Shown here in pieces: positions 1,957-44,276 of a stretch of DNA of 64,000 nucleotides (position 1 is its first letter; the number at the start of each line of letters is the position of its first letter). The stretch is from an uncultured Candidatus Saccharibacteria bacterium. Lineage in GTDB: Bacteria; Patescibacteriota; Minisyncoccia; Phycocordibacterales; UBA12088. The position numbers and the translations under genes were made by a program. The DNA is taken from positions 157,851-221,850 of the forward strand of contig CAZHFF010000002.1 in the NCBI GenBank assembly GCA_964531785.1. Direction: 5' to 3'. The notes under the pieces were generated by a model. The model had not been told where the DNA came from. It did no database searches and worked only from the letters and a program-made list of their open reading frames with translations.

Positions 1957-4254
1957 ATGCATAAGACCATCAACAAGACCCTGGTTTCCCTGATGTTGTG
2001 CGCGTTCCTCAGCGCCGCATGGGGCACACCACACGCACTGGCGGCGGGTCAAAAGCAGCAAAAGAACGACGTATCGAAGTACGAGACAAGTTCACGTATC
2101 GAGCATACGCGAATGGACGAGCGCCGCGCGCAGGTAGACGAGCGTTTGAAGCGAGCAAATGAACGACTACATGAGCGTATCAGGGCACTCGAGAACCGTA
2201 TCTGTCGGAGCTATGCACAGTTCGAGCGCTTCGGGGTTACGGTACCACTGCCTACGTTCTGTCGTGGCAGCGGTTCAGGATCTGCGCCACAGCTCATCAT
2301 GACCGTGACGCCAAGTTCGGTCGTTGCCGGTGGAACCGCGCAGCTTACGTGGACGAGCGAACATGCCAGTTCTTGTACCGCGAGCAATGGTTGGAGTGGT
2401 ACGCGGCCAACAAGCGGCACCGAACAGGTAGCACCGGCAACCACTACCACCTATACGCTCACCTGTGTCGGGCCCCACGGCACGATCGAAAAGTCCGCCA
2501 TCCTTTCCGTAGAGAAGAACGGTCTTCCGACCCCTACGATCTCGCTCAATGCAGCGCCTTCGAGCGTGGTGAGTGGAGCAAGCACCACGTTGACCTGGGT
2601 AAGTACGCATGCAGCAACCTGCACCGCAAGCGGTGGCTGGAGCGGACCGCGCGCCACCTCGGGTAGCGAGGTCGTAACACCGACCGCGACTACGACCTAC
2701 GAGCTCGCGTGTTCGAACGCAACAGGAACGGCCACCACGAGCGTCGAGGTCGGGTTCATGGAGGCGGTGTCGGTGCCGACAGCTAGCCTTGTTGCAGAAC
2801 CAGCGTTGGTCACGTTTGGCGGGACAAGTACGCTGAACTGGGACTCGCAGCACGCGACCGGATGCATGGCTTCCGGCGCGGCCGACTGGAGCGGCCCGCG
2901 TGCAGCGACCGGTAGTGCACTTGTCACTGTGTTCGCAACGACCACCTATGTGGTCGAGTGTGGGGACGGGGTAAGCAGCTCGACCGCGAGTGCGACCGTA
3001 TCGGTCGTGCCGGTCGCCGTTTCACTTCCGACCGTCACCCTCAGCGCAGATCCTGTCCTGGTGGAAGCCGGAAGTAGTACCACGTTGACCTGGGTAAGTA
3101 CGCATGCAGCAACCTGCACCGCAAGCGGTGGCTGGAGCGGACCGCGCGCCACCTCGGGTAGCGAGGTCGTAACACCGACCGCGACTACGACCTACGAGCT
3201 CGCGTGTTCGAACGCAACAGGAACGGCCACCACGAGCGTCGAGGTCGGGTTCATGGAGGCGGTGTCGGTGCCGACAGTGAGTCTCACGGCCGCGTCGACC
3301 CAAGTCACCGAGGGATCGACCACCACCCTTACCTGGGAGAGCACCCATGCCACAGCGTGCATGGCGTCTGGTGCCGGTGACTTTACCGGGGACCGGGCAC
3401 TTGCGGGACAGGTAGAGGTGACCGTGTCCGCCCTGACGACGTACACGATCACCTGTGGCAATGGGACCGCAACCGCCACCGATTCAGTGACAGTTACGGT
3501 CACCCTGCCAGAGGGCACGGTCCCAACGGTCAACCTCAGCGCACTGCCTTCGTCGGTCGCGTCAGGCGCCACATCGACCCTGGCCTGGAACACAAGTGGA
3601 GCTGATTCATGTGAAGCGCTCCTCGGATGGACCGGTACACGTGCAACTTCAGGCGAGGAGATCGTGAGCGTTACTGGCACGACGACCTATGAGTTGCGGT
3701 GCGAGAACGCGTACGGAACAACAACAAGCAGCGTTGAGGTCGTTGTGGTCGCCGAGGCCGATCCGGTCAGCACCATGCTGATCAGCGAGTTCGTATTCAA
3801 CCCGGCGGGCACAGAACCAGGGAATGAATGGGTAGAGCTCTATAATGGAAGCACCGGCCCCATCGATCTTATGCATTGGACGCTCGCCGATGCAAGCAGC
3901 TCAGACCTGATCGCGACAAGCAGCAAGGTCATTCCTGCCGGCGGCTATGTGGTCATAACCTCAAGTACGACGCTTGCACAAACCCTCATAGCAGGCGGTG
4001 TGGATGCGATCGCGGCTACGTCGAGCATCGGACAGAACGGCCTCAGCAACACAGGTGACGCACTGTTCTTGCGGGACCCTGCGGGTACGCTAGTGGACGC
4101 GGTGAGCTATGGGACGAACACTATGGCGTTCTCCCCGGCACTTTCGATCGCAGGTATGGCAGAAGGCGCATCTTACGCACGCGTACCGGTTACCGTTGAT
4201 ACCGACACCGCAGCTGACTGGGTGATCCTCACGGTACCGACACCGGGCTCGTAG
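1957..4254 (+). CDS. secreted surface protein: signal peptide, coiled coil, six ~82-aa Ig-like repeats, C-terminal lamin-tail domain (LTD)
   Basis: N-terminal hydrophobic signal LVSLMLCAFLSAAWG. Six repeats share the pattern TLxW.S..A..C.ASGGWSG.R..SG...V.P..TTTY.L.C. C-terminus LISEFVFNPAGTEPGNEWVELYN...GDALFLRDPAGTLVDAVSYG matches the LTD pattern. Confidence 0.8.
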   Translation: MHKTINKTLVSLMLCAFLSAAWGTPHALAAGQKQQKNDVSKYETSSRIEHTRMDERRAQVDERLKRANERLHERIRALENRICRSYAQFERFGVTVPLPTFCRGSGSGSAPQLIMTVTPSSVVAGGTAQLTWTSEHASSCTASNGWSGTRPTSGTEQVAPATTTTYTLTCVGPHGTIEKSAILSVEKNGLPTPTISLNAAPSSVVSGASTTLTWVSTHAATCTASGGWSGPRATSGSEVVTPTATTTYELACSNATGTATTSVEVGFMEAVSVPTASLVAEPALVTFGGTSTLNWDSQHATGCMASGAADWSGPRAATGSALVTVFATTTYVVECGDGVSSSTASATVSVVPVAVSLPTVTLSADPVLVEAGSSTTLTWVSTHAATCTASGGWSGPRATSGSEVVTPTATTTYELACSNATGTATTSVEVGFMEAVSVPTVSLTAASTQVTEGSTTTLTWESTHATACMASGAGDFTGDRALAGQVEVTVSALTTYTITCGNGTATATDSVTVTVTLPEGTVPTVNLSALPSSVASGATSTLAWNTSGADSCEALLGWTGTRATSGEEIVSVTGTTTYELRCENAYGTTTSSVEVVVVAEADPVSTMLISEFVFNPAGTEPGNEWVELYNGSTGPIDLMHWTLADASSSDLIATSSKVIPAGGYVVITSSTTLAQTLIAGGVDAIAATSSIGQNGLSNTGDALFLRDPAGTLVDAVSYGTNTMAFSPALSIAGMAEGASYARVPVTVDTDTAADWVILTVPTPGS
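2584..2782 (+). repeat. copy 1 of a perfect 199-bp direct repeat inside the surface-protein gene (Ig-like unit 2)
   Basis: Base-for-base identical to 3079..3277 (offset 495 bp = 165 codons, in frame). Confidence 0.95.
3079..3277 (+). repeat. copy 2 of the perfect 199-bp direct repeat (Ig-like unit 4)
   Basis: Identical to 2584..2782. The flanking bases differ (agc/agt upstream, c/t downstream). Confidence 0.95.
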
Positions 4255-4342: not shown

Positions 4343-4418
4343 GCGCGCATAGCTCAGTTGGTAGAGCGCCGAGCTTATACCTCGGTGGTCCTAGGTTCGA
4401 GTCCTAGTGCGCGCACCA
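4343..4418 (+). tRNA. tRNA-Ile, anticodon UAU (CCA encoded)
   Basis: Hand-folded cloverleaf: acceptor GCGCGCA/TGCGCGC, D arm GCTC-AGTTGGTA-GAGC, anticodon arm CCGAG-CTTATAC-CTCGG (TAT at 34-36), variable TGGTC, T arm CTAGG-TTCGAGT-CCTAG, A73, CCA. Confidence 0.85.
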
Positions 4419-4450: not shown

Positions 4451-6598
4451 TTATTCAAAGTGCAGCCTAGCACTCTGTCGTGTTACTTGGTCGAAGAGTG
4501 CGGGGTAACTGGATAGCGTCGGGTCTCTGGTAACGATCGCCTGTGCTTCGGTGCGTGCCGCCTCGACGAGCTTAAGATTCTTAAGCGCTTCCATGCCAAG
4601 GTCCGAAAGGCCAGATTGGCTCCGTCCATACAGTTCACCGGGTCCACGTAGCTTCAGATCGAGCTCAGCAAGCTCGAATCCGTTCTTTGCTTTACTGAGG
4701 GCCATGAGGCGACTGTTCTTCTGACCTTCGCTCGTCAGCACGAAGCAGTATGCCTGCTGGCTGCTTCGTACGACCCGACCACGCAGCTGGTGCAGTTGCG
4801 CTAAGCCAAAGCGCTCAGCACCTTCGATGATGATTACGGTCGCGTTCGGTACGTTAACACCGACCTCGACGACCGAGGTTGCTACAAGCACATCGAACTC
4901 GTGCGCAAGGAAGCGACGCATGACCTCCTCTTTTTCCGCTGGTTTCATTTGGCCGTGCAGGACATCGATTCCGTAGCCCTTAAGCTCCTGCCGTTTTAGG
5001 CGCTCTGCCTCAGCAAGCACGGATTTCGTCTGAACAGCCATTTCTTTTGCAGGGTCTGGTTCATCGATGCGTGGACAGATGACGTAGGCCTGTCGTCCTA
5101 GGTCGAGCTCTCGACGCACCGACGTGTACATGGCGGCACGTCCTGTTCTGGGAACCACCTGCGTGATGATGGGTTTCCTCCCGTAGGGCATTTCACTTAG
5201 TACGGTGAGGTCAAGGTCACCGTAGAGGGTGAGCGCCAGTGTCCGGGGAATAGGTGTCGCGGTCATCGAGAGCAGGTGAGGGATCGCACCGTGCTTACCC
5301 ACGAGCGCTTTTCGCTGCGCGGTGCCGAAACGGTGTTGCTCATCGACAATGACGTACGCAAGATCTCTGAAGCGCACGCTTTTTTGTATGAGCGCATGGG
5401 TACCGACGAGCATCGTGATTTCACCAGTTGCCACCCACTTGAGGAGCTGCGCCTTTGACACCCTCGTGCTCCTCACGGGACCCGCCTTCGAGGGGTATTT
5501 TTTGCACCCACTTCCGGTCAGTAGACCGAGCTGTATCGGCATATGACCGAACAGTTCGGTGAACGATTCAAAGTGCTGCTGCGCAAGGATCTCGGTCGGT
5601 GCCATGTACGCCACTTGGTACCGTGCAGAAGGCCGTTCGGGCGGGCTTGCGGTTACTACTGCGTACGCGGTCGTTGCTGCGACCGCCGTCTTCCCGCTCC
5701 CCACATCACCTTCAAGGAGGCGGCTCATGGGTGATGTGGCGGCCATGTCCGCAAGGATATGGTCGATCGCGTGTCGTTGACCCGCTGTCAGCTCGAAAGG
5801 GAGGCGTTCCACGAACAGAAGAGCACGCAGGTGACCCTGTTCTATCGGGACCGATGGTGTCCTGTCGACGCTTGCGCGGGCACGCTGCTTGGCGACCTGG
5901 ATCACGAACACCTCCTCGAATGCGAACCGCTTTCGTGCAACGATCGCATCTTTTTCCTGTTTGGGTTGGTGGAGCATGACCAGTGCTCGGTCGAGAGCAG
6001 GCAAGTGATACTGCAGAAGGATATGTGGCGGTATCGGATCAGCGAGCGTCTGGTGGATCCCTGCGCGCACGAGCTTGGCGATCGCATGGCGGAACCAGCG
6101 CGACGTGATGCCGAGCGTTTCAGGGTATACTGCATACAGCGTTTCCTCTCCGTCTTCGCGGACAAACAGGGATCCGGGACTTCCTGTCGGGAGCTTTGCG
6201 GTGCGCTCGATCTCGGGATTCGCGACATAGAGTGGACCCGCCCCCTCGACCCTTCCTGTGACCTTGACCGACTGTCCGTCCTCGTACATCTTTGCAATGT
6301 ACGGTTGATTAAACCACATGAGCTTGATCTTACCGGTGCCGTCCTCAAGCCAAGCCTCCGCTATCGGCCGCCTCGTCTTCCAGGTCTTGCGTGTCGCTGG
6401 CTTCCGGAGGGTCCCGTAGAGTATGGCGTCAGCGCCACGCTGTACATCAACCACCGTTGTTTGGTTACCAGAGCTTTCGTAGCGCGTCGGGAAGTGGTAG
6501 ACGAGATCGCGGAGCGTCGCGATGCGCAGGCGTTCGAGCGCTCCGCGCTGGCTGTCGGTGAGCCGGAAGTGGTCAGATAGGGGGTCAGCCGGTTGCAT
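4451..6598 (-). CDS. recG: ATP-dependent DNA helicase RecG
   Basis: Wedge/OB N-terminus, helicase motifs GDVGSGKT, DEQHRFG, SATPIPRT-like (SMTATPIPRTL), QLHQLRGRVVR. Start set to ATG 6598 (MQPADPL), which lies 6 nt downstream of a minus-strand TATACT. The longer ORF start at 6676 is less likely. Confidence 0.9.
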   Translation of the reverse strand: MQPADPLSDHFRLTDSQRGALERLRIATLRDLVYHFPTRYESSGNQTTVVDVQRGADAILYGTLRKPATRKTWKTRRPIAEAWLEDGTGKIKLMWFNQPYIAKMYEDGQSVKVTGRVEGAGPLYVANPEIERTAKLPTGSPGSLFVREDGEETLYAVYPETLGITSRWFRHAIAKLVRAGIHQTLADPIPPHILLQYHLPALDRALVMLHQPKQEKDAIVARKRFAFEEVFVIQVAKQRARASVDRTPSVPIEQGHLRALLFVERLPFELTAGQRHAIDHILADMAATSPMSRLLEGDVGSGKTAVAATTAYAVVTASPPERPSARYQVAYMAPTEILAQQHFESFTELFGHMPIQLGLLTGSGCKKYPSKAGPVRSTRVSKAQLLKWVATGEITMLVGTHALIQKSVRFRDLAYVIVDEQHRFGTAQRKALVGKHGAIPHLLSMTATPIPRTLALTLYGDLDLTVLSEMPYGRKPIITQVVPRTGRAAMYTSVRRELDLGRQAYVICPRIDEPDPAKEMAVQTKSVLAEAERLKRQELKGYGIDVLHGQMKPAEKEEVMRRFLAHEFDVLVATSVVEVGVNVPNATVIIIEGAERFGLAQLHQLRGRVVRSSQQAYCFVLTSEGQKNSRLMALSKAKNGFELAELDLKLRGPGELYGRSQSGLSDLGMEALKNLKLVEAARTEAQAIVTRDPTLSSYPALFDQVTRQSARLHFE

Positions 6599-6692
6599 GA
6601 CGAGAGTATAGCACGACCGCCCCGTGCCATTTGACCGTGCAGATGAACTATAGTATAATGAAACTAGTTCGTGCAAAGGAAGGAGGAGCTCT

Positions 6693-6872
6693 ATGGCTCG
6701 ATATCAATGGGAAGCGCGCTGGCACGCGTTCAAGTACAATATGGGCGAAAGCAGAAGAGGGTGGCAGGAGCTGCACCGGTGGGTGATGAACGATGCACAC
6801 TGGTTGGTGCGCGTCGTCGCGGTCTCGTGGCCATTCGGTCTCGTGTTCCTCATGCTCGTCTTTTCGATGTGA
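6693..6872 (+). CDS. small (59 aa) Trp-rich protein with C-terminal transmembrane segment; below the ORF-track size cutoff
   Basis: ATG 6693 is preceded by AAGGAAGGAGGAG (strong SD) and TATAAT at 6652-6657. Translation MARYQWEARWHAFKYNMGESRRGWQELHRWVMNDAHWLVRVVAVSWPFGLVFLMLVFSM. Its stop is 4 nt before the next ATG. Confidence 0.45.
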   Translation: MARYQWEARWHAFKYNMGESRRGWQELHRWVMNDAHWLVRVVAVSWPFGLVFLMLVFSM

Positions 6873-6876
6873 GCCC

Positions 6877-7179
6877 ATGCCTCTCTTGGAAAAGTTGGCC
6901 GCGCTCTGGCGCGTGGCACAGCCGCTCGTCGAAGCCGCCGAGCAGGCAGAGGTCCAGGTGGACCGCATCCTTTCTGACAGTGAGGTGCAACAGGTCATTG
7001 CCGATAACGTGCCGGTCACGGTCACCCCGTACCAGAACGGCGAGCCAATGCTGCGGTACATGGTCACCGCGCGGGGGGATAACCTCAGGGAGACCGTCCG
7101 GGCTGCGCTCGAGATACCGCAGGCAGACGCTATCCACTTTTGCAGCCAGCACGGGCTGATCGTGTATACGCTTACGTAA
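6877..7179 (+). CDS. hypothetical protein (100 aa)
   Basis: In-frame ATG inside ORF 6793..7179 (MPLLEKLAALWRVAQPL...). Immediately follows the small ORF and is followed by a strong hairpin. Confidence 0.5.
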   Translation: MPLLEKLAALWRVAQPLVEAAEQAEVQVDRILSDSEVQQVIADNVPVTVTPYQNGEPMLRYMVTARGDNLRETVRAALEIPQADAIHFCSQHGLIVYTLT

Positions 7180-7381: not shown

Positions 7382-7948
7382 ATGCTCTACACACGCAAGG
7401 GAGATGGGGGGACCACAAAAACGCTCGCGACGCGGGATCGAGTCTCAAAGGCCTCGCCCCTACCCGAGGCACTCGGCACGCTCGATGAGCTCAACTCGTT
7501 CCTCGGTGTAGCTCGGGCCGGCGCCGGCCGTTCCGAGCAGGTAGCCGTCGTGCTTGGTGGCAAGAAGGTGCCCCTTACGGCGCTGCTTCGTGAGCTGCAA
7601 GAGAACCTGTTCATTGTGCAGGCCGAGCTCGCTGGGGCGAAGATGCACCTGACCAAACGTAAGGTGACCCGAGCGGAACAGGTGACGGACACGATCGAAC
7701 GGAGCATGCCACCCATCACCGGTTTTTCCATTGCGGGCGGGACCGAGTTGTCCGCACTGCTCGATGTGGCCCGGACGCTCGCACGCAGAGCAGAGCGTCG
7801 AGCGGTCGGGGTGCATGAGTCCGGTCTGCAAAGGCTGTCCCCAATGACGCTCGCGTACCTCAATCGGTTGTCGAGCGTACTTTTCGCACTAGCACGGTAC
7901 GTGAACTATACGACGGGAGTCCTTGAAGAGCGACCCTCGTACCAGTAA
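7382..7948 (+). CDS. PduO-type ATP:cob(I)alamin adenosyltransferase family protein
   Basis: MLYTRKGDGGTT...LGTLDELNSFLGV...EL..RAERR pattern. ATG 7382 lies 6 nt after TATACT (7370-7375). Confidence 0.8.
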   Translation: MLYTRKGDGGTTKTLATRDRVSKASPLPEALGTLDELNSFLGVARAGAGRSEQVAVVLGGKKVPLTALLRELQENLFIVQAELAGAKMHLTKRKVTRAEQVTDTIERSMPPITGFSIAGGTELSALLDVARTLARRAERRAVGVHESGLQRLSPMTLAYLNRLSSVLFALARYVNYTTGVLEERPSYQ

Positions 7949-7961
7949 CATAGAGGTTGCT

Positions 7962-9383
7962 ATGCGATATCTCATGCGGGAACAGGTCAGTATCGGTGTA
8001 GCGCTGCTCACCGTCATGATCGCCACGCTCATAGGCGGCGGCACCGGGGCTTTCTTCGTGCGTGATACCGTGTGGAGCTACACGCTTGCCGTGGCGCCGG
8101 GTGCTCATGGTAAGAGCGAACTTCAGTATGGCGCCTGGCCCGAGCTTGCGAACAGCAGTTTCTTTGAGAACGTGAAGCACCAGTTCCTTGCGGATGCGGT
8201 AAGTTTCGTCGAAGCGAACCTGAGCACGATGCAGATGCGGGTCTATCGCAAGGGTGAACTTGCCGTCGAGGTGCCTATCAAGAGCAAGGGCAAGGAGGGA
8301 AGCTGGTGGGAAACACCGGCAGGCCTCTACCGGGCCGAGGGGAAATCACGCAACCACTTCTCGTCATTCGGGCAGGTGAACATGCCGTACTCGATACCGT
8401 TCCAGGGCAACTTTTTCATACACGGCTGGCCAACCTACGAGGACGGCTCACCGGTCTCGTCGACGTACTCAGGTGGCTGTATTCGACTCGCGGATGAGCA
8501 TGCAAAGCTCGTGTACGACCTTGTTGAGGTAGGCATGCCGATACTCGTGTTCAAAGAGCAGAAGCCCGAGACCTTCTCGTACATGCTCCGTGTTCCGAAC
8601 ATATCCGCGCAGAGCTACCTGGTCGCCGACCTAGACACCAATTTCGTGCTGCTCATCGGCGATGCGCTCGAACCACGCGAAACGAGCGTCGCGGCCAAGT
8701 ACATGACCGCGATGGTCGCGAGCGAATGGCAGAACATCGAGAAAGAAGCGCGTACGAGCGATGTGCCAGACCCGTTAGGCCTTCTCGCTCCGAACACGCG
8801 GTACTCGCTCTACGAGCTGTTCTTTCCGCTTCTCCTTCAGGACTCGGACCATGCTGCCCGTACGCTTGCGGCACACTTCGGTACTGACCGTTTCCTGACG
8901 TTGCTCGAGAAGAAGGCGCGAGCTATCGGCATGACCTCATCCCGTTTTGCGGACCCAGCAGGAGTACTCGGGTACAATACATCTACTGCTGAGGATCTAT
9001 TTCATCTCCTCAAGTACCTGCGGACCAACCGGCCGTTCGTGCTCAATATGAGCGCGGGGACCGTGGACACCCGTACCTATGGAGAGCCGAGGTTCGGGGT
9101 GCTTGCGCCGAAGCATCCCTTCGCAGAAGACGCTACGTTTCAGGGCGGTGCGTATTCGTTCAACCTCGAGGGCGTGACACGGAACACCGGTTCAACAGCT
9201 GCTGTGCCACTTGCTTTCGCCGAGCCTACGGTGCGTAAGCGGGGCCACCATGATCTGGTGACGGTGTTCCAGCAACCTTTTGAAAAAGGCCACCGAGCGC
9301 TCGCGTTCATCGTCCTCGATTCGGAAGATCCGGTCGCGGATACGCGAGCACTCCGGTCGTTCGTCGCACAGATGTACCAGTGA
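7962..9383 (+). CDS. membrane-anchored L,D-transpeptidase (YkuD domain) fused to a degenerate D-Ala-D-Ala carboxypeptidase (S11/PBP5)-like domain
   Basis: YkuD motif FFIHGWP...SSTYSGGCIRLADEHA. The C-terminal half aligns by eye to S11 peptidases but shows SVAAK, SDH and QGG where SxxK, SxN and KTG are expected. Start ATG 7962 follows AGAGG. Confidence 0.7.
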   Translation: MRYLMREQVSIGVALLTVMIATLIGGGTGAFFVRDTVWSYTLAVAPGAHGKSELQYGAWPELANSSFFENVKHQFLADAVSFVEANLSTMQMRVYRKGELAVEVPIKSKGKEGSWWETPAGLYRAEGKSRNHFSSFGQVNMPYSIPFQGNFFIHGWPTYEDGSPVSSTYSGGCIRLADEHAKLVYDLVEVGMPILVFKEQKPETFSYMLRVPNISAQSYLVADLDTNFVLLIGDALEPRETSVAAKYMTAMVASEWQNIEKEARTSDVPDPLGLLAPNTRYSLYELFFPLLLQDSDHAARTLAAHFGTDRFLTLLEKKARAIGMTSSRFADPAGVLGYNTSTAEDLFHLLKYLRTNRPFVLNMSAGTVDTRTYGEPRFGVLAPKHPFAEDATFQGGAYSFNLEGVTRNTGSTAAVPLAFAEPTVRKRGHHDLVTVFQQPFEKGHRALAFIVLDSEDPVADTRALRSFVAQMYQ

Positions 9384-9399: not shown

Positions 9400-9726
9400 T
9401 TACTCAACGTCGGTCGTCGTGGCGGTAGCTTCTTCGGTGAGCTCGGTCGTGCTCGATGCGTCCTCAAGGATCGGCAGTTCCCGGACGATGGATCCGGGCG
9501 GGCGTACGCCCGCGCCCGGTACGGCATCAGGTGCTATTTGATTGCTCGAACGCACGATTTCCTCCATACGTGCCCGTTCTTCAGCGGTCGGGGGTCGAGA
9601 AGGTAGGCTTCCACGAAGCCATCCCTGCCGGTCAGCGTAAAAGTAGAGCCCATAACCAACGAGTCCGAGCAGAAGTACGGATACCATGAGCACGGTCGTT
9701 CGGGGAACCTGGCGTCGGTTCGACAT
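9400..9726 (-). CDS. small single-pass membrane protein, hypothetical
   Basis: MSNRRQVPRTTVLMVSVLLLGLVGYGLYFY... followed by a low-complexity acidic/Thr tail. Minus-strand TATACT (9735-9740) lies 8 nt upstream of the ATG. Confidence 0.6.
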   Translation of the reverse strand: MSNRRQVPRTTVLMVSVLLLGLVGYGLYFYADRQGWLRGSLPSRPPTAEERARMEEIVRSSNQIAPDAVPGAGVRPPGSIVRELPILEDASSTTELTEEATATTTDVE

Positions 9727-9787
9727 ACACGCTCAGTATAGCGTACTTCCTGCGGTCGTGCAGCCGCTTTCGCAGCATGGAGTAGTT

Positions 9788-9820
9788 GTTCATGTTGCGT
9801 TCATGTGTCACTGGTATCCT
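9788..9820 (+). promoter_or_regulatory. tandem GTTCATG boxes (11-bp period) plus -10-like TATCCT; candidate response-regulator-dependent promoter
   Basis: gttcatgt at 9788-9795 and 9799-9806, then 9 nt (counted from the GTTCATG 7-mer ending at 9805), then tatcct at 9815-9820 (context TGGTATCCT). Confidence 0.45.
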
Positions 9821-9826
9821 CTTCTA

Positions 9827-10045
9827 CAGAGTGATCGGGCAATGAGGAGGGTTGCCCCATAGGAAGGAAGAGGTATCTCGTCCTGAAGCGGAGCCGTTAG
9901 CGCTTATGCATCGAAGTGTTACTACTAGTGCACCATAGTATGACCATACCCAGTGATCGTCCATCGGACGACCAGGATCTCGTAGATCGCAAGTGAGCCG
10001 GGGGCCGGGCGTAACGACAACTTACGTGCGGCCCCCGGCGCTTTA
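9827..10045 (+). ncRNA. candidate ~215-nt non-coding transcript (promoter at 9788-9820, ends at an 11-bp GC hairpin)
   Basis: No plausible ORF in the 364-bp divergent intergenic region. Internal hairpins GGGCAA/TTGCCC and TCGTCC/GGACGA. Terminal hairpin gccgggggccg...cggcccccggc (9997-10039) lies where neither flanking gene needs a terminator. Confidence 0.25.
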
Positions 10046-10051
10046 CCGGAC

Positions 10052-10084
10052 CTTCATGCAATCTTCATGATTTTGCGCTAGCAT
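10052..10084 (+). promoter_or_regulatory. tandem CTTCATG boxes (11-bp period) plus -10 TAGCAT; promoter of the RR/HK operon, probable autoregulation site
   Basis: cttcatg at 10052-10058 and 10063-10069, 9 nt, tagcat at 10079-10084, 6 nt, ATG 10091. Confidence 0.5.
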
Positions 10085-10090
10085 AGCAGT

Positions 10091-10771
10091 ATGAGATTGC
10101 TCATCGTTGAAGACGAAGAACGTTTGGCCGAGCTTCTGAAGCGAGGGTTTGAAAAACAGGGTTACGCGGTCGACTGTCTCTATGATGGGGACGAGGCGAA
10201 AAAGCGGATACTCATGTACCGCAACGAGTATGATGCGGTCATTCTCGACCTGATGCTCCCGAACCTGGACGACCTCACGGTTTGCCAGGATGTGCGGAGT
10301 GCTGGGGTGACGATGCCGATCCTGGTGCTCTCCGCACGTGACGAAACAGAGAGCAAGGTGAACCTGCTGCAGAGCGGTGCGGACGATTACGTGCAGAAGC
10401 CGTTCTCGTTTGCGGAACTTGAGGCACGTATCGCCGCGCTATTACGGCGGCCGCAGGAGTCGCTGGTTCTAGAACTGACCTCGCCGGATGGCAGTATCGC
10501 TTTGAACAAACGATCACACACGGTCGCGGTGAGCGGCACCGAGGTTCCGCTCACGTTAAAAGAGTTCATGTTGCTCGAGTATTTCTTGCGCAATCCTAAC
10601 GCAGTGATCGCGCGCGATGAGCTCCTTGAGCACGCGTGGGATTTCAACTATCCCGCTTTTAGCAACACTGTGGATGTCCATGTTAAGAATCTTAGAAAGA
10701 AGTTGGAGAGTACCGCCACCGAGGCGCGTATTGAAACGGTGCGTGGCGTCGGTTACCGATTTGTGGGCTAA
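10091..10771 (+). CDS. OmpR/PhoB-family response regulator (receiver plus winged-helix DNA-binding domain)
   Basis: MRLLIVEDEERLAELL...DAVILDLMLPNLDD...; C-terminus LTLKEFMLLEYFLRNPN...VDVHVKNLRKKL...VRGVGYRF. Confidence 0.9.
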   Translation: MRLLIVEDEERLAELLKRGFEKQGYAVDCLYDGDEAKKRILMYRNEYDAVILDLMLPNLDDLTVCQDVRSAGVTMPILVLSARDETESKVNLLQSGADDYVQKPFSFAELEARIAALLRRPQESLVLELTSPDGSIALNKRSHTVAVSGTEVPLTLKEFMLLEYFLRNPNAVIARDELLEHAWDFNYPAFSNTVDVHVKNLRKKLESTATEARIETVRGVGYRFVG

Positions 10772-11822
10772 GTATCGCTACGATGTCTATACGCGGACTC
10801 GGTGGAACGTGGTCCTGCTCCAAGTGGTGTACGTCGTGGTCATTTTGGGGCTCTTTTGGTTCACTCTGACCCAGGCACATCGTCAGCTGGTCGAGACCAT
10901 GCTCACCAGCATAGCGCAAGTGCTTGCGCGCCCTGAGCAGAATTTGGCTGAACAAATACCGCTGCTCATACGGCAGACAAAAATAGAGAGCCTTGCAGTG
11001 CTCTTCTTCCTGCTCACCTTCGCTGCAACCGCGTTCGGACTCGTGGTGGCGCATATTACCCTCCAGCCGGCTCGGCGCACGCTCGAGCTGCAGAAGAAGT
11101 TTATTGCAAATGTTGCTCACGAGCTACGTACTCCGCTCGCGGTACTCCGTACGAACAATGAGGTCGCTCTGCTTACCGAAGATCCGCCACCCAACCTCGA
11201 ACGCGTCCTGGCGCACAATCTCGAGGAAGTGGAACGCATCACGACCATGCTGAACACACTTCTTTCGTTTAATGAGCTCTACCAGCCCGGACGTCTGAAC
11301 TTTGCCCCGGTTGCGCTGACGCAGGTCCTTGAGCGCGTGCTCGAGTCGCTCGATACCTTTGCACGCGAACGTGGTATCGAGCTTGTGTACAAGCCGTCGC
11401 CGGTTCCAGACGTCGACGGCAATGAGGCAGCGCTCGTGCAGCTATCCGCCAGTCTCATCAAGAATGCGCTCATGTTCTCTCCGCGGAACGCCGGTCGTGT
11501 TGTGCGGGTTGAGGTGGTCGATCGCGGTGATGGGGTCGAGGTCACTGTTGAGGATCAGGGTGTTGGCATGGACGACGAGGAACTGCTCCGCGTCCGTGAA
11601 CCGTTCTATCGTGTTGATAAATCTCGGGCTCGCGCCAGCGGCTCGGTAGGCTTAGGGCTCACCATGGTATCTGAGATCGTACGTATTCATCGTGGCACGC
11701 TGCTCATACGGAGTGCGCTCGGTAAGGGCACCACGGTGACCGTGAGGCTCCCGTCTGCGCGTCATCTGAAGCTGCAAGGGGGATCGTCACCAGCGGAACG
11801 AGCCACTCTGCGCTTTGTATAG
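10743..11822 (+). CDS. sensor histidine kinase (2 TM, HisKA, HATPase_c)
   Basis: H-box FIANVAHELRTPLAVL; G-boxes DQGVGMD and GSVGLGLTMV. Start is uncertain: GTG 10743 or TTG 10761 would overlap the RR stop. ATG 10617 would overlap the RR by 155 nt, so I disfavour it. Confidence 0.8.
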   Translation: MASVTDLWAKYRYDVYTRTRWNVVLLQVVYVVVILGLFWFTLTQAHRQLVETMLTSIAQVLARPEQNLAEQIPLLIRQTKIESLAVLFFLLTFAATAFGLVVAHITLQPARRTLELQKKFIANVAHELRTPLAVLRTNNEVALLTEDPPPNLERVLAHNLEEVERITTMLNTLLSFNELYQPGRLNFAPVALTQVLERVLESLDTFARERGIELVYKPSPVPDVDGNEAALVQLSASLIKNALMFSPRNAGRVVRVEVVDRGDGVEVTVEDQGVGMDDEELLRVREPFYRVDKSRARASGSVGLGLTMVSEIVRIHRGTLLIRSALGKGTTVTVRLPSARHLKLQGGSSPAERATLRFV

Positions 11823-13898
11823 CTACACGTGCTGTAGGTTCGCGCGAACACCAAGGAGTACCTGCTCGATATCAGTAACACTTGCCGGCTTGGTGAGATG
11901 GTGATGGAATCCAGCTTGCAGCGCACGCTCTTTGTCGGAGCTCTGCCCATAGCCGGAAACCGCGATGATCTTCGCGTTCACCTTTTGGTCATTGAGCGCT
12001 CGGGCCACGGCATAGCCGTCCATATCGGGCAGGCCAATGTCAAGCAGTACGACGTGCGGTCGGTAGGTGCGGGCTTGCTCTATCGCCTCCGTGCCGGTAT
12101 GGACCATGCGCGTTGCATATCCCAAGTGTTCGAGCAGCTTCGCCATGCTCACTGCAGCTGCCTCGTTATCATCGACCACAAGGATCCGGCAGTCCCGCTC
12201 CGGTGCCGCGGGAACGGCAGGCATTACCGGGATCTCGGGAAGTGGAGCCTGTACCGTGACTACTTTCGGCAGGAACACGGTGAACGTGCTGCCGAGCCCG
12301 AGTCCTTCGCTCGTTGCTTCGACAGTGCCGCCGTGCATGCCAACGAGCCGTTTGGTGAGCCAGAGTCCGATGCCAAGACCAGTGCCAGCACGTGAGTCCG
12401 CTCCGCCCTGGTGGAACGGTCGAAAGATCGCCTGGAGCTTATCGGCCGGTATACCCTTGCCGTTGTCTTGGACCACGAGGGTCACATCGCCGTTCTCGAG
12501 CGATGCCGCGAGTCGTATGGTGCCGGGTGCCTGGGTGTATTTTACTGCATTAAAGAGCAGGTTGACGAGCACTTGTTCAAGCCGGACCGCATCCACCTCG
12601 AGCCACACATCGGAACCGGGTTGTTCGATGATGAGCCGGTGTCCGGCTGCCTCCAAACTCGGCAGCACCGAGTCCACGGCATGCTTAAGTATGGACTGGA
12701 GCTTGGATCGACCGGTCTTCAACTTGAACTTGTTCCGCGTGATCCGTACAACGTCGAGCAGGTCGTCCAATAGGCGGCGCATCGTTCGCGTTTGCTGTTC
12801 AGCTTGGGTGAGGAGCTCGGTGAGCTCGGGGTCGGTCGTTCGGAGTTTGACCAGTTCGAGCGTGGTGACGAGTGGTGCGAGCGGGTTCCGAAGCTCATGG
12901 GCCAAGATGGCGATGAACGCGTTCTTTGAGTCATTGTCTCGGGCAAGTTGTGCGAGCGATTGTTCAAGCTCAACAGTACGCTTATTGAGCGCCTCAGCGA
13001 CCGTTTTACGCTCTTCGACCAGTGCTGCCATAAGATAGAAGATCGGCGCGATAAGGATCATGAAGAGCTCGGTGGCGAGCAGCTGCGCGCTCAAGCGATC
13101 GGTGTCGAGGTGTTGAAATACTATGCCTACGATACCAAGTACGAACACGGTTACGATCGCATAGACCGTAGCGCGCGCACCTATCCGTAGTCCGATCCAG
13201 AAAAGGACACCGAAAAAGAGATACAGTACCGCGAATACGCTCGACTGTGGTATGGCGGTCCAGAACAAGAGATAGGTCACCAGGAGGAGTGCCGTGCTGA
13301 CGAGCAGGAGTTCAGTCAGCTCGTGCTTGGCGTGGGGTCGGACACCACTTTTCACGAGGCTCGTGATGAGCGGTGTGAGTATCAGCACACTGACGATACC
13401 GCCAGCGCTGAGGCTGATCCAGAGTGCAAGCGGCGTCTCCATGAGTACGCCTGTTGACATTCGGGTGAGGACGGACACGGTCGGCGTGATGAGGGGTGTC
13501 GTGATCGCTACGAAAATGAGCAGCATTGCATCGCGCGTGCTCGCCATTGTTCCTACGAAATTGAAACGCTCTAGTATATAACCACCCAACAGTGCTTGTG
13601 TCGTATAGGCGATACTCACCATGAGATATACGATCGGCGGTAGTCCCGCGCCGCTCATAAAGGTCAACACAAGGAATGCAAGCAGTAGGACCGGCCAGAC
13701 ACCGTAGCCAAGCAGGAACGCTGCCGCGAGTGCGATGCCGGTCGGTGGCCAGATGAACGCGGGGTTCACGTCCAGGCTGAAGTACAGAAAATACCCCAGC
13801 TTACCGCTCACTAGCAGTGCGAGGAAAACCAGGATATAGACGCTGTAGCGCTCGCTCGAGGCGGTCATAGGGAACTGGCGGAAGAGCGATATGAGCAT
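11823..13898 (-). CDS. hybrid sensor histidine kinase: polytopic MASE1-like membrane domain, HisKA, HATPase_c, C-terminal receiver
   Basis: FIWPPTGIALAAAFLLGYG..., H-box FIAILAHELRNPLAPL, DNGKGIP and GTGLGIGLWL, receiver RILVVDDNEAAA...VLLDIGLPDMDGY. Its stop abuts the convergent HK stop (11822/11823). Confidence 0.85.
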   Translation of the reverse strand: MLISLFRQFPMTASSERYSVYILVFLALLVSGKLGYFLYFSLDVNPAFIWPPTGIALAAAFLLGYGVWPVLLLAFLVLTFMSGAGLPPIVYLMVSIAYTTQALLGGYILERFNFVGTMASTRDAMLLIFVAITTPLITPTVSVLTRMSTGVLMETPLALWISLSAGGIVSVLILTPLITSLVKSGVRPHAKHELTELLLVSTALLLVTYLLFWTAIPQSSVFAVLYLFFGVLFWIGLRIGARATVYAIVTVFVLGIVGIVFQHLDTDRLSAQLLATELFMILIAPIFYLMAALVEERKTVAEALNKRTVELEQSLAQLARDNDSKNAFIAILAHELRNPLAPLVTTLELVKLRTTDPELTELLTQAEQQTRTMRRLLDDLLDVVRITRNKFKLKTGRSKLQSILKHAVDSVLPSLEAAGHRLIIEQPGSDVWLEVDAVRLEQVLVNLLFNAVKYTQAPGTIRLAASLENGDVTLVVQDNGKGIPADKLQAIFRPFHQGGADSRAGTGLGIGLWLTKRLVGMHGGTVEATSEGLGLGSTFTVFLPKVVTVQAPLPEIPVMPAVPAAPERDCRILVVDDNEAAAVSMAKLLEHLGYATRMVHTGTEAIEQARTYRPHVVLLDIGLPDMDGYAVARALNDQKVNAKIIAVSGYGQSSDKERALQAGFHHHLTKPASVTDIEQVLLGVRANLQHV

Positions 13899-13984: not shown

Positions 13985-14018
13985 CAGTATATCCGAAAAG
14001 TATGAAGACCTCATGAAG
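13985..14018 (-). promoter_or_regulatory. tandem CTTCATG/CTTCATA boxes (11-bp period) plus TATACT; promoter of the hybrid kinase gene
   Basis: Minus strand reads CTTCATGaggtCTTCATActtttcggaTATACT (plus coordinates 14018-14012, 14007-14001, 13990-13985). Same architecture as 9788 and 10052. Confidence 0.45.
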
Positions 14019-14220: not shown

Positions 14221-14244
14221 TGCGGAGGGTGTGGGATTCGAAGC
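14221..14244 (-). repeat. partial duplicate (22/24 nt) of the tRNA-Ser 3' end (T-loop, T-stem 3' strand, acceptor 3' strand, 3 trailer nt)
   Basis: Plus-strand tgcggagggtGtgggattcgaaGc versus tgcggagggtAtgggattcgaaCc at 14379-14402. There is no complementary 5' T-stem, so it is not a tRNA. Confidence 0.85.
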
Positions 14245-14380
14245 TTACAGCTTCAGTACCCTTTGCTGCTCTTTTGGTTCGCTTCGCTCCCAAAACAGCG
14301 TGCAAAGGCTTCGAATCCGTGTCACGCGTTTCTGCGAAACGCTACACATACCCTCTACAGCTCTCATGATGTTCGATCTG

Positions 14381-14467
14381 CGGAGGGTATGGGATTCGAA
14401 CCCATGAGGGGTTTTACCCCCTACCTCGTTAGCAGTGAGGCGCTTTCGACCACTCAGCCAACCCTCC
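14381..14467 (-). tRNA. tRNA-Ser, anticodon GCU (class II, long variable arm; CCA not encoded)
   Basis: Minus strand GGAGGGT-TG-GCT-GAGTGGTCGAA-AGC-G-CCTCA-CTGCTAA-CGAGG-TAGGGGGTAAAACCCCTCAT-GGG-TTCGAAT-CCC... ACCCTCC-G. Acceptor 7 bp; variable stem AGGGG/CCCCT. Confidence 0.9.
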
Positions 14468-44187: not shown

Positions 44188-44276
44188 ATCCTTCATTGCG
44201 CCATGGAGTTTTCATGCAGGTGCGCTACACTGGATGCACACGTCCAGGCGTGCGGTTATCAGTCACCACAACCCCT

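Follow-up and report, generated by a model that had tools for sequence, protein, structure and literature searches.

We describe a candidate regulon in a 64,000-nucleotide (nt) stretch of DNA from an uncultured Candidatus Saccharibacteria bacterium (contig CAZHFF010000002.1; this whole stretch is the window hereafter), in which an OmpR/PhoB-family response regulator is predicted to act on tandem heptamer boxes that replace the -35 element at three promoters of its own two-component locus. Site 2 lies directly before the regulator gene, site 3 precedes a neighbouring hybrid histidine kinase gene, and site 1 points into about 215 nt that end at a GC-rich hairpin. Judging from sequence, we are confident that the regulator binds these boxes and turns on the leaderless operon in which it is encoded, along with the hybrid kinase gene and a short transcript; the complete explanation, a three-promoter regulon that includes a regulator-controlled small RNA by analogy with the CiaR-dependent csRNAs, is favoured here with modest confidence only.

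Tandem boxes in place of the -35 element

All three sites share one layout, namely a heptamer, 4 nt, a second heptamer (an 11-bp period), 9 nt and a -10 hexamer (Table 1). The initial annotation of this DNA had reported that architecture for sites 1 and 2, and the coordinates that it gave for both sites and for the hairpin were exact on rereading. Both sites stand; the count of two does not, given that a third site on the minus strand, at 13986-14018, had been missed. A search of the window with STTCATR-N4-STTCATR-N9-TANNNT returned three matches against 0.00 expected, which is not a chance frequency, and only 0.02 matches are expected when up to two mismatches are allowed in the full pattern. 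The shorter pattern TTCATG-N5-TTCATG, with at most one mismatch, likewise gave three matches, against 0.22 expected. The three full-pattern sites are confined to 4.2 kb around the two-component genes.

By direct reading, the -35 positions of sites 1 and 2 agree with TTGACA at just 2-3 of six positions, and a sigma-70 scan found no full promoter. The -10 element of site 1, GGTATCCT, fits the recurrent -10 form of this genome, GGTAnnCT/GGTATACT, and is close to the local consensus. Because the boxes form a direct repeat with an 11-bp period, they fit the sites of OmpR/PhoB-family regulators and not the -35 element of a sigma factor, and the earlier reading of an OmpR/PhoB-type repeat standing in for the -35 element was upheld. 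Elsewhere in the window, a box-like sequence with two mismatches and correct spacing (CGCCATG-gagt-TTTCATG, 9 nt, TACACT, plus strand, 44199-44231) adjoins an open reading frame (ORF) start at 44196 and is probably a chance occurrence.

The boxes follow the recognition helix of the regulator

The closest solved structures to the regulator in the PDB are DrrD, RegX3, PrrA, MtrA and PhoP. It reached no NCBIfam equivalog cut-off (187 bits against the PhoB equivalog, for which the cut-off is 296) and is not the equivalog of any named regulator; its best named relative, from Parcubacteria GW2011_GWA2_43_11, is 70% identical. We place the source organism in the Parcubacteria/Paceibacterota of the candidate phyla radiation. 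The search for relatives found 1853 proteins at E below 1e-60, and the two-component system of this regulator is widespread in Paceibacterota.

About 200 loci encoding such relatives were fetched and numbered from L001 onward, and TTCATG-N5-TTCATG was scored in the 130 nt upstream of each regulator ATG, a site being called at two mismatches or fewer. Boxes were found for 38 of the 40 non-redundant orthologues that carry the recognition helix D[VA]H[VIM]KNLR (about 50% identity or more), but for only 2 of 117 OmpR-type regulators with other recognition helices (Fisher p = 1.5e-31). On this comparison, the boxes track the DNA-reading helix of the regulator subfamily, and the autoregulation that had been suggested for the regulator is well founded because the boxes follow the subfamily across its orthologues. 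The spacing is equally regular, with 9-10 nt between the box pair and TAnnnT at nearly all of 66 sites from 35 orthologous loci. The regulator of L188 (65% identity) has no good boxes upstream.

Another response regulator or an alternative sigma factor might instead read the boxes, and the receiver domain of the hybrid kinase, together with proteins in relatives that consist of a REC domain only, does hint at a branched phosphorelay. We regard this as very improbable, given that the boxes co-occur with one type of recognition helix and vanish when that helix changes, and that a direct repeat with this period is a signature of the OmpR/PhoB family.

We infer that the heptamer pairs are most likely binding sites of the phosphorylated regulator encoded at 10091-10771. 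Two regulator monomers would sit in tandem on each pair, one helical turn apart and overlapping the -35 position, and the bound regulator would recruit RNA polymerase to the -10 element 9 nt downstream. Site 2 would thereby autoregulate the leaderless regulator-kinase operon, site 3 would drive the neighbouring MASE1 hybrid kinase gene, and site 1 would drive a separate transcript of about 215 nt ending at the hairpin 9997-10039.

A conserved promoter-to-hairpin unit at site 1

The site 1 promoter is intergenic and directed away from any annotated gene. Plus-strand ORFs that start between site 1 and the regulator gene are all shorter than 30 amino acids (aa), those that remain being of 25-28 aa; a 58-aa ORF (9686-9862) begins upstream of the boxes. 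ORFs overlapping the predicted transcript have negative codon scores, and opposite-strand ORFs at 9824-10061 were rejected on the same grounds. Searches for tRNA and tmRNA found none in the site 1 region, and Rfam, whether at gathering or at permissive thresholds, matched the window no better than chance and 10 related loci not at all. The earlier statement that this stretch holds no credible ORF is right for frames of 30 aa or more but too strong as a whole, since an 18-codon frame at 9940-9996 recurs in relatives, as described below.

The RNA 9827-10048 folds at -87.9 kcal/mol (z = -3.5), and the hairpin by itself at -39.4 kcal/mol (z = -4.6). A smaller hairpin near the 5' end exposes its loop, GAGGAGG, with P(unpaired) = 0.87. 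The predicted transcript also contains a purine run, TAGGAAGGAAGAGG, at 9860-9875, and the short unit of L093 has TAGGAAGGGAAGAA. A REP-like repeated palindrome was considered as the identity of the GC-rich hairpin and rejected, its stem being unique in the window. A role as terminator of a flanking gene was rejected on gene orientation, which bears out the earlier claim that neither neighbour needs it.

L162, the closest relative with a contig (regulator 73% identical), has these features in the same order as the window. The counterpart of the site 1 -10 element, GGTAGACT, lies in the same place, the hairpin stem TGAGCCGGGGGCCGG...CGGCCCCCGGCG is identical to that of the window with a different loop, and the equivalent unit folds strongly (z = -6.5). 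By blastn and nhmmer, 9727-10090 had no homologue in the first 81 loci besides L001, which is the same contig; among the later loci, the boxes and hairpin stem are shared in sequence only with the L162 group.

Similar units occur in at least six other Paceibacterota lineages. In each, a box pair and -10 element are followed by 70-260 nt that contain no long ORF and then by a hairpin (-16 to -45 kcal/mol). They stand upstream of the regulator gene in L088, L196 and L093, and directly after the kinase gene in L005, L007/L168-177 (L168-177 being strain copies of L007), L090, L096, L008, L011, L088, L196 and L198. Since the next gene is mostly convergent (L007, L090, L096, L008, L088, L196 and L198), the units in relatives would be stand-alone transcription units. 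T-tracts are present at the hairpins of L008, L011, L088 and L093. In L005, L007, L090 and L096 the terminal and inner hairpins show compensatory changes at 8 of 28 pairs, in a set with too few distinct sequences for robust covariation statistics, and the inner hairpin covaries in the L005/L007/L096 family. A single RNA family embracing all units was rejected, given that an nhmmer profile built from L005/L007/L090/L096 recovered nothing beyond its own members and their strain variants.

The region had been described as divergent, on account of a 108-aa minus-strand ORF (Table 1). This ORF is gene-like in codon usage, with the best score of the six frames; in contrast, the Logan gene calls of the assembly omit it, and Pfam and NCBIfam searches with it gave no match. 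The site 1 boxes could in principle serve that gene, or be a spare site without a promoter, the hairpin then being an unrelated structure: they lie 47-64 nt upstream of the gene's own TATACT, and OmpR-family regulators can act from upstream positions. We give this very little credence, however, because in L162 the boxes, -10 element and hairpin follow a co-directional PAP2 gene and no divergent gene is present, which argues that the conserved target is the plus-strand transcript; moreover, the orientation of the boxes and their 9-nt spacing to the -10 element match sites 2 and 3 and the 66 sites in relatives. The L162 hairpin could also end the transcript of the upstream PAP2 gene.

An independent small transcript from site 1 is rather probable. 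By comparison of sequences, this regulator subfamily repeatedly targets short hairpin-ended transcripts across Paceibacterota, and on account of that recurrence a small RNA is the best reading of the site 1 unit, as the initial annotation had proposed. Its conserved place in L162 speaks for that proposal, whereas several observations weigh against it. The tail of the window hairpin, GCTTTACC, fails the U-tract criterion, so that this is no canonical intrinsic terminator, and because the L162 hairpin also lacks a U-tract, termination at both may be partial, with read-through from site 1 past the hairpin into the regulator gene being possible. The body of the L162 unit, about 170 nt, has diverged beyond alignment with the window; no seed motif common to 11 units was found, including one resembling an anti-Shine-Dalgarno sequence; and in L190, L193 and L195 the only box site within 3.5 kb is the one next to the regulator gene. 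Finally, the recurring frame at the foot of the hairpin is unexplained by a purely non-coding RNA.

A short reading frame at the foot of the hairpin

Of ten distinct long units, nine contain an ATG frame that is 15-25 codons long, mostly 18-19, and stops 0-8 nt before the hairpin foot (Table 1). The exception is L196b, which has no frame ending at the hairpin; the short units (L088a, L196a and L093) likewise lack one. Shuffling puts the chance of a hairpin-foot frame at about 0.03 per unit (0.02-0.05). The criterion was chosen after seeing the data, and L198 and L196 were examined once it had been fixed, L198 passing and L196b failing; even allowing for this, an accident is unlikely, because the frame occurs in at least five independent lineages, each with a low chance per unit.

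The frames of the window and L162 have the same ATG context (ACCAT-n-ATG), the same TGA-GCCGGGGG junction and 18 codons each. The sequence between ATG and stop has diverged, the insertions and deletions cancelling out at 9 nt, a multiple of three. Peptide sequences are not conserved among units, substitutions between L007 and L005 fall on codon positions 1/2/3 as 8/8/6, and RNA pairs within the frame covary. The frame is thus, on these comparisons, apparently kept in length and position and not for its amino-acid sequence. In the predicted fold of the window transcript, the ATG of the frame is paired for the most part (P(unpaired) = 0.2).

Such a frame would suit a ribosome-dependent attenuator. 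Site 1 would then be a distal autoregulated promoter of the regulator-kinase operon and the 215 nt its 5' leader. Formation of the hairpin would hinge on translation of the 18-codon frame as far as the hairpin foot, and read-through would feed back on regulator and kinase levels. The near-constant length and stop position with an unconserved peptide are in keeping with this, a ribosome at the stop codon would probably cover the 5' arm of the hairpin, and the hairpins of the window and L162 have no U-tract. In addition, the unit is upstream of and co-directional with the regulator gene in the window and L162, in L088 and L196 and in L093, and frame and hairpin together precede a same-strand gene in the window, L162 and L011. 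In L007/L168, L090, L096, L008, L088b, L196b and L198, however, a convergent gene follows the hairpin, leaving nothing to attenuate, and in the window a complete box promoter and a leaderless ATG, both belonging to the regulator gene itself, come directly after the hairpin. The minimum-free-energy and centroid folds revealed no alternative antiterminator pairing, and the predicted pairing of the ATG also speaks against this model. We judge the attenuator unlikely.

Alternatively, the product of the unit could be the peptide of about 18 residues itself, whether a fast-evolving small protein, an exported signal of the pheromone-cassette type or a feedback modulator like MgrB. The retention of ORF length, ATG context and stop position between the window and L162 despite the diverged sequence between them, and the recurrence of the frame in independent lineages, are consistent with a translated product; the lineage needs no Shine-Dalgarno sequence, and small single-pass membrane proteins are also box targets in L015, L006 and L002. 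The peptides are, however, hydrophilic and carry neither a signal sequence nor a double-glycine leader, Pfam finds no transporter among the nearby window genes, the even spread of substitutions over codon positions gives no sign of purifying selection in a frame whose inner pairs covary, and the units without a frame listed above would have no such product. A peptide product seems quite improbable to us, more so than the attenuator.

Taking the translated possibilities together, it is conceivable, as a tentative view that we hold less strongly than the small RNA, that the site 1 unit has as its functional core, in place of a base-pairing RNA, the frame of ~18 codons that stops at the hairpin foot, acting as a translation-sensing switch or as a signalling or feedback peptide. 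If true, this would be a previously undescribed and widely distributed regulatory module of candidate-phyla-radiation bacteria.

Probable leaderless messenger RNAs

The regulator mRNA is probably leaderless, as had been proposed from its -10 hexamer 6 nt before the ATG, since TAGCAT-N6-ATG, with no Shine-Dalgarno sequence, fits a genome-wide pattern. No Shine-Dalgarno sequences were found at gene starts of the window, and the layout of a -10 hexamer 5-9 nt before the ATG is common to the regulator gene and 11 or more other window genes. Because GGTATACT-N6-ATG recurs at many of these starts (7368, 29079, 37903, 42238, 45309, 46081 and 53069 among others), leaderless mRNAs appear, by sequence, to be the rule for genes that open an operon in the source genome. 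The -10-N6-8-ATG layout is kept at the orthologues of L002, L083, L162, L165, L166, L084, L092 and L015. These gene starts agree with the loss of the anti-Shine-Dalgarno motif reported for many Parcubacteria, a survey having found it in only 48% of Parcubacteria 16S rRNAs (PMC9297842).

As called in the public data, the L162 regulator gene (P0002, 241 aa) begins at an ATG inside a CTTCATG box (region 4001-4046). Translation most likely begins instead at the leaderless ATG at 4047, for a protein of 226 aa, and several other over-long orthologues may share this start-call error.

Further targets and neighbouring genes

The positions of all features are collected in Table 1. Further box-driven targets in relatives are REC-only proteins, secreted proteins and small single-pass membrane proteins (73 aa in L015, 129 aa in L006 and about 98 aa in L002). 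REC-only proteins resembling the hybrid kinase receiver were seen in L089 (1019) and L013 (5435), both preceded by box sites, and in L162 (5922-6293), where the gene adjoins the operon; the REC-only proteins suggest a branched phosphorelay under the same regulator. The MASE1 hybrid kinase gene has the same orientation in L162 as in the window.

Undecaprenyl-pyrophosphate phosphatase genes (uppP/BacA or PAP2) directly adjoin box-driven units in four relatives, a placement that hints at a response of the system to cell-envelope or lipid-carrier stress. Besides uppP/BacA and PAP2, the cell-envelope genes near the system in relatives include one for an L,D-transpeptidase. A short way upstream of the window's two-component genes, a 486-aa protein (7923-9383) fuses a YkuD L,D-transpeptidase domain with a Peptidase_S11 D-Ala-D-Ala carboxypeptidase domain. 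By Pfam, the neighbouring window genes encode a cobalamin adenosyltransferase, this YkuD-S11 fusion, kinases and a phosphoribosyltransferase.

Two tRNA genes of the window also deserve mention. The last 22 nt of tRNA-Ser(GCT) are duplicated 136 nt downstream with one difference (14221-14242 and 14379-14400, minus strand; 0 expected by chance), a repeat that resembles the att-type scar left by an integrated element and is located between the tRNA and box site 3. At 4343-4418 lies a tRNA-Ile with the anticodon TAT, which is uncommon in bacteria.

Table 1. Features of the two-component locus in the window and their counterparts in related loci (window positions unless a locus is named).
Feature	Position	Strand	Details
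Site 1 boxes	9788-9794 and 9799-9805	+	GTTCATG-ttgc-GTTCATG; direct reading, pattern search; 19 of 21 nt kept in L162
Site 1 -10 element	9813-9820	+	GGTATCCT, hexamer TATCCT at 9815-9820; 9 nt past the second box
Site 2 boxes	10052-10058 and 10063-10069	+	CTTCATG-caat-CTTCATG; direct reading, pattern search, orthologue conservation
Site 2 -10 hexamer	10079-10084	+	TAGCAT; 9 nt past the second box, 6 nt (agcagt) before the ATG at 10091
Site 3	13986-14018	-	CTTCATG-aggt-CTTCATA, 9 nt, TATACT; the ATG of the MASE1 hybrid kinase (13898) follows ~80 nt downstream
Predicted regulator-dependent transcript, ~215-220 nt	9827-10045	+	putative start 7 nt past the -10 element, putative end at the hairpin
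5' hairpin	9837-9857	+	GGGCAAU/GUUGCCC, loop GAGGAGG (9844-9850) exposed; minimum-free-energy fold, pairing probabilities
18-codon ATG frame	9940-9996	+	MTIPSDRPSDDQDLVDRK; TGA 9994-9996 directly abuts the hairpin at G9997
Inner hairpin within the frame	9957-9971	+	UCGUCC-AUC-GGACGA; from the fold; L162 equivalent GUCGUCG...CGACGAC
GC-rich hairpin	9997-10039	+	arms 9997-10014 and 10022-10039; 11-bp outer and 6-bp inner stem, followed by GCTTTACC
OmpR/PhoB-family response regulator, 226 aa	10091-10771	+	Pfam PF00072 Response_reg and PF00486 Trans_reg_C winged helix
Cognate histidine kinase	10731-11822	+	two predicted membrane helices, then HisKA and HATPase_c (Pfam); start from the Logan gene call
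MASE1-HisKA-HATPase-REC hybrid kinase	11823-13898	-	Pfam; convergent with the regulator-kinase operon
Divergent 108-aa ORF	9400-9726	-	N-terminal membrane helix; own TATACT at 9735-9740, 8 nt before the ATG
L162, site 1			GTTCATT-ttgt-GTTCATG, 9 nt, TAGACT, about 200 nt, hairpin
L162, after the hairpin			CTTCATG boxes, TACAAT, 7 nt, regulator ATG, kinase, convergent MASE1 hybrid kinase
L162, site ahead of MASE1 kinase			tTTCATG-aact-GTTCATA, 10 nt, TAGGGT
L162, hairpin-foot frame			18 codons, MESTLVQEVVETDDSTIT
L005, hairpin-foot frame			18 codons, MSLANIFVVDASLVRIQV
L007, hairpin-foot frame			19 codons, MVIANTPGTDTSSTCIQTN
L090, hairpin-foot frame			19 codons, MVIANTPSTDTSSTCILTR
L096, hairpin-foot frame			18 codons, MSTTLQETGVSVEYIQFQ
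L198, hairpin-foot frame			18 codons, MSTLHKERGNCASDHIVR
L008, hairpin-foot frame			19 or 25 codons by frame, MVANKKNGGIRLKILQKIF or MQYGHGRKQKKWRDPLKDPPEDILM
L011, hairpin-foot frame			15 codons, MRRSRTKKLLRALSA
L088b, hairpin-foot frame			23 codons, MHQHTDTPAVIAAGSAIPERESA
L011, uppP/BacA or PAP2	6387-7154		
L088, uppP/BacA or PAP2	2743-3600	-	
L196, uppP/BacA or PAP2	5429-6271	-	
L162, uppP/BacA or PAP2	3190-3693		

Significance and comparison with known systems

Bacteria of the candidate phyla radiation cannot be grown alone and, to our knowledge, almost nothing is known of their gene regulation. We found no earlier description in the literature of this box motif or of regulator-linked small RNAs in Patescibacteria. 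For a two-component system of Paceibacterota, the locus supplies a binding motif and a promoter layout as well as a small regulon, together with a search rule for regulator-dependent small transcripts (a box pair, 9-10 nt, a -10 element and then a hairpin), and it draws attention to the recurring frame. Provided that the transcripts exist, they would rank with the earliest regulator-linked small RNAs or peptides to be put forward for the candidate phyla radiation.

The promoters resemble those of the PhoB regulon. In E. coli, pho boxes consist of two 7-bp direct repeats, 4 bp apart, that stand in for the -35 element about 10 bp before the -10 element, and the PhoB regulator-kinase operon is autoregulated; the window shares both the repeat layout and the predicted autoregulated operon. 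It differs in the repeat itself (CTTCATG instead of CTGTCAT), in a regulator that falls below the PhoB equivalog cut-off and in the absence of phosphate genes nearby, the system of relatives lying instead near cell-envelope genes.

The frame invites two further comparisons. As in the attenuators of pyrBI, trpL and the erm leaders, a short ORF adjoins a hairpin that could stop transcription before a co-directional gene; unlike them, no antiterminator structure was found here, most relatives have no same-strand gene next in line, and the downstream gene of the window has its own promoter. MgrB/PhoPQ, ComC/ComDE, ComS and SHP likewise present a tiny, fast-evolving ORF beside a two-component system, with a promoter dependent on its regulator, but the window peptide has no membrane helix, export leader or transporter, and the substitutions seen here give no sign of selection on the peptide.

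The closest parallel is with the CiaR csRNAs of streptococci, in which an OmpR-family regulator recognizes a hexamer direct repeat with an 11-bp period, TTTAAG-N5-TTTAAG, 10 nt upstream of the -10 element at intergenic promoters, with a terminator hairpin within 250 nt, and controls its own operon as well (PMC3091779). The csRNAs range in length from 51 to 202 nt, and their sequences vary widely from one species to another (PMC3091779). The system of the window departs from them in its box, TTCATG, in its phylum, Patescibacteria, and in a hairpin without a U-tract, and it is known from sequence; furthermore, no shared motif resembling an anti-Shine-Dalgarno sequence was found, and the long units carry the frame of ~18 codons ending at the hairpin, which does not fit the csRNA model and underlies the tentative reading in which the frame is the core of the unit. 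By analogy, then, the working principle would be a set of PhoB/CiaR-type promoters with a small transcript like the CiaR csRNAs, and what is new here is the motif, the lineage, the conserved promoter-to-hairpin unit tied to a two-component system and the short frame that recurs within it.

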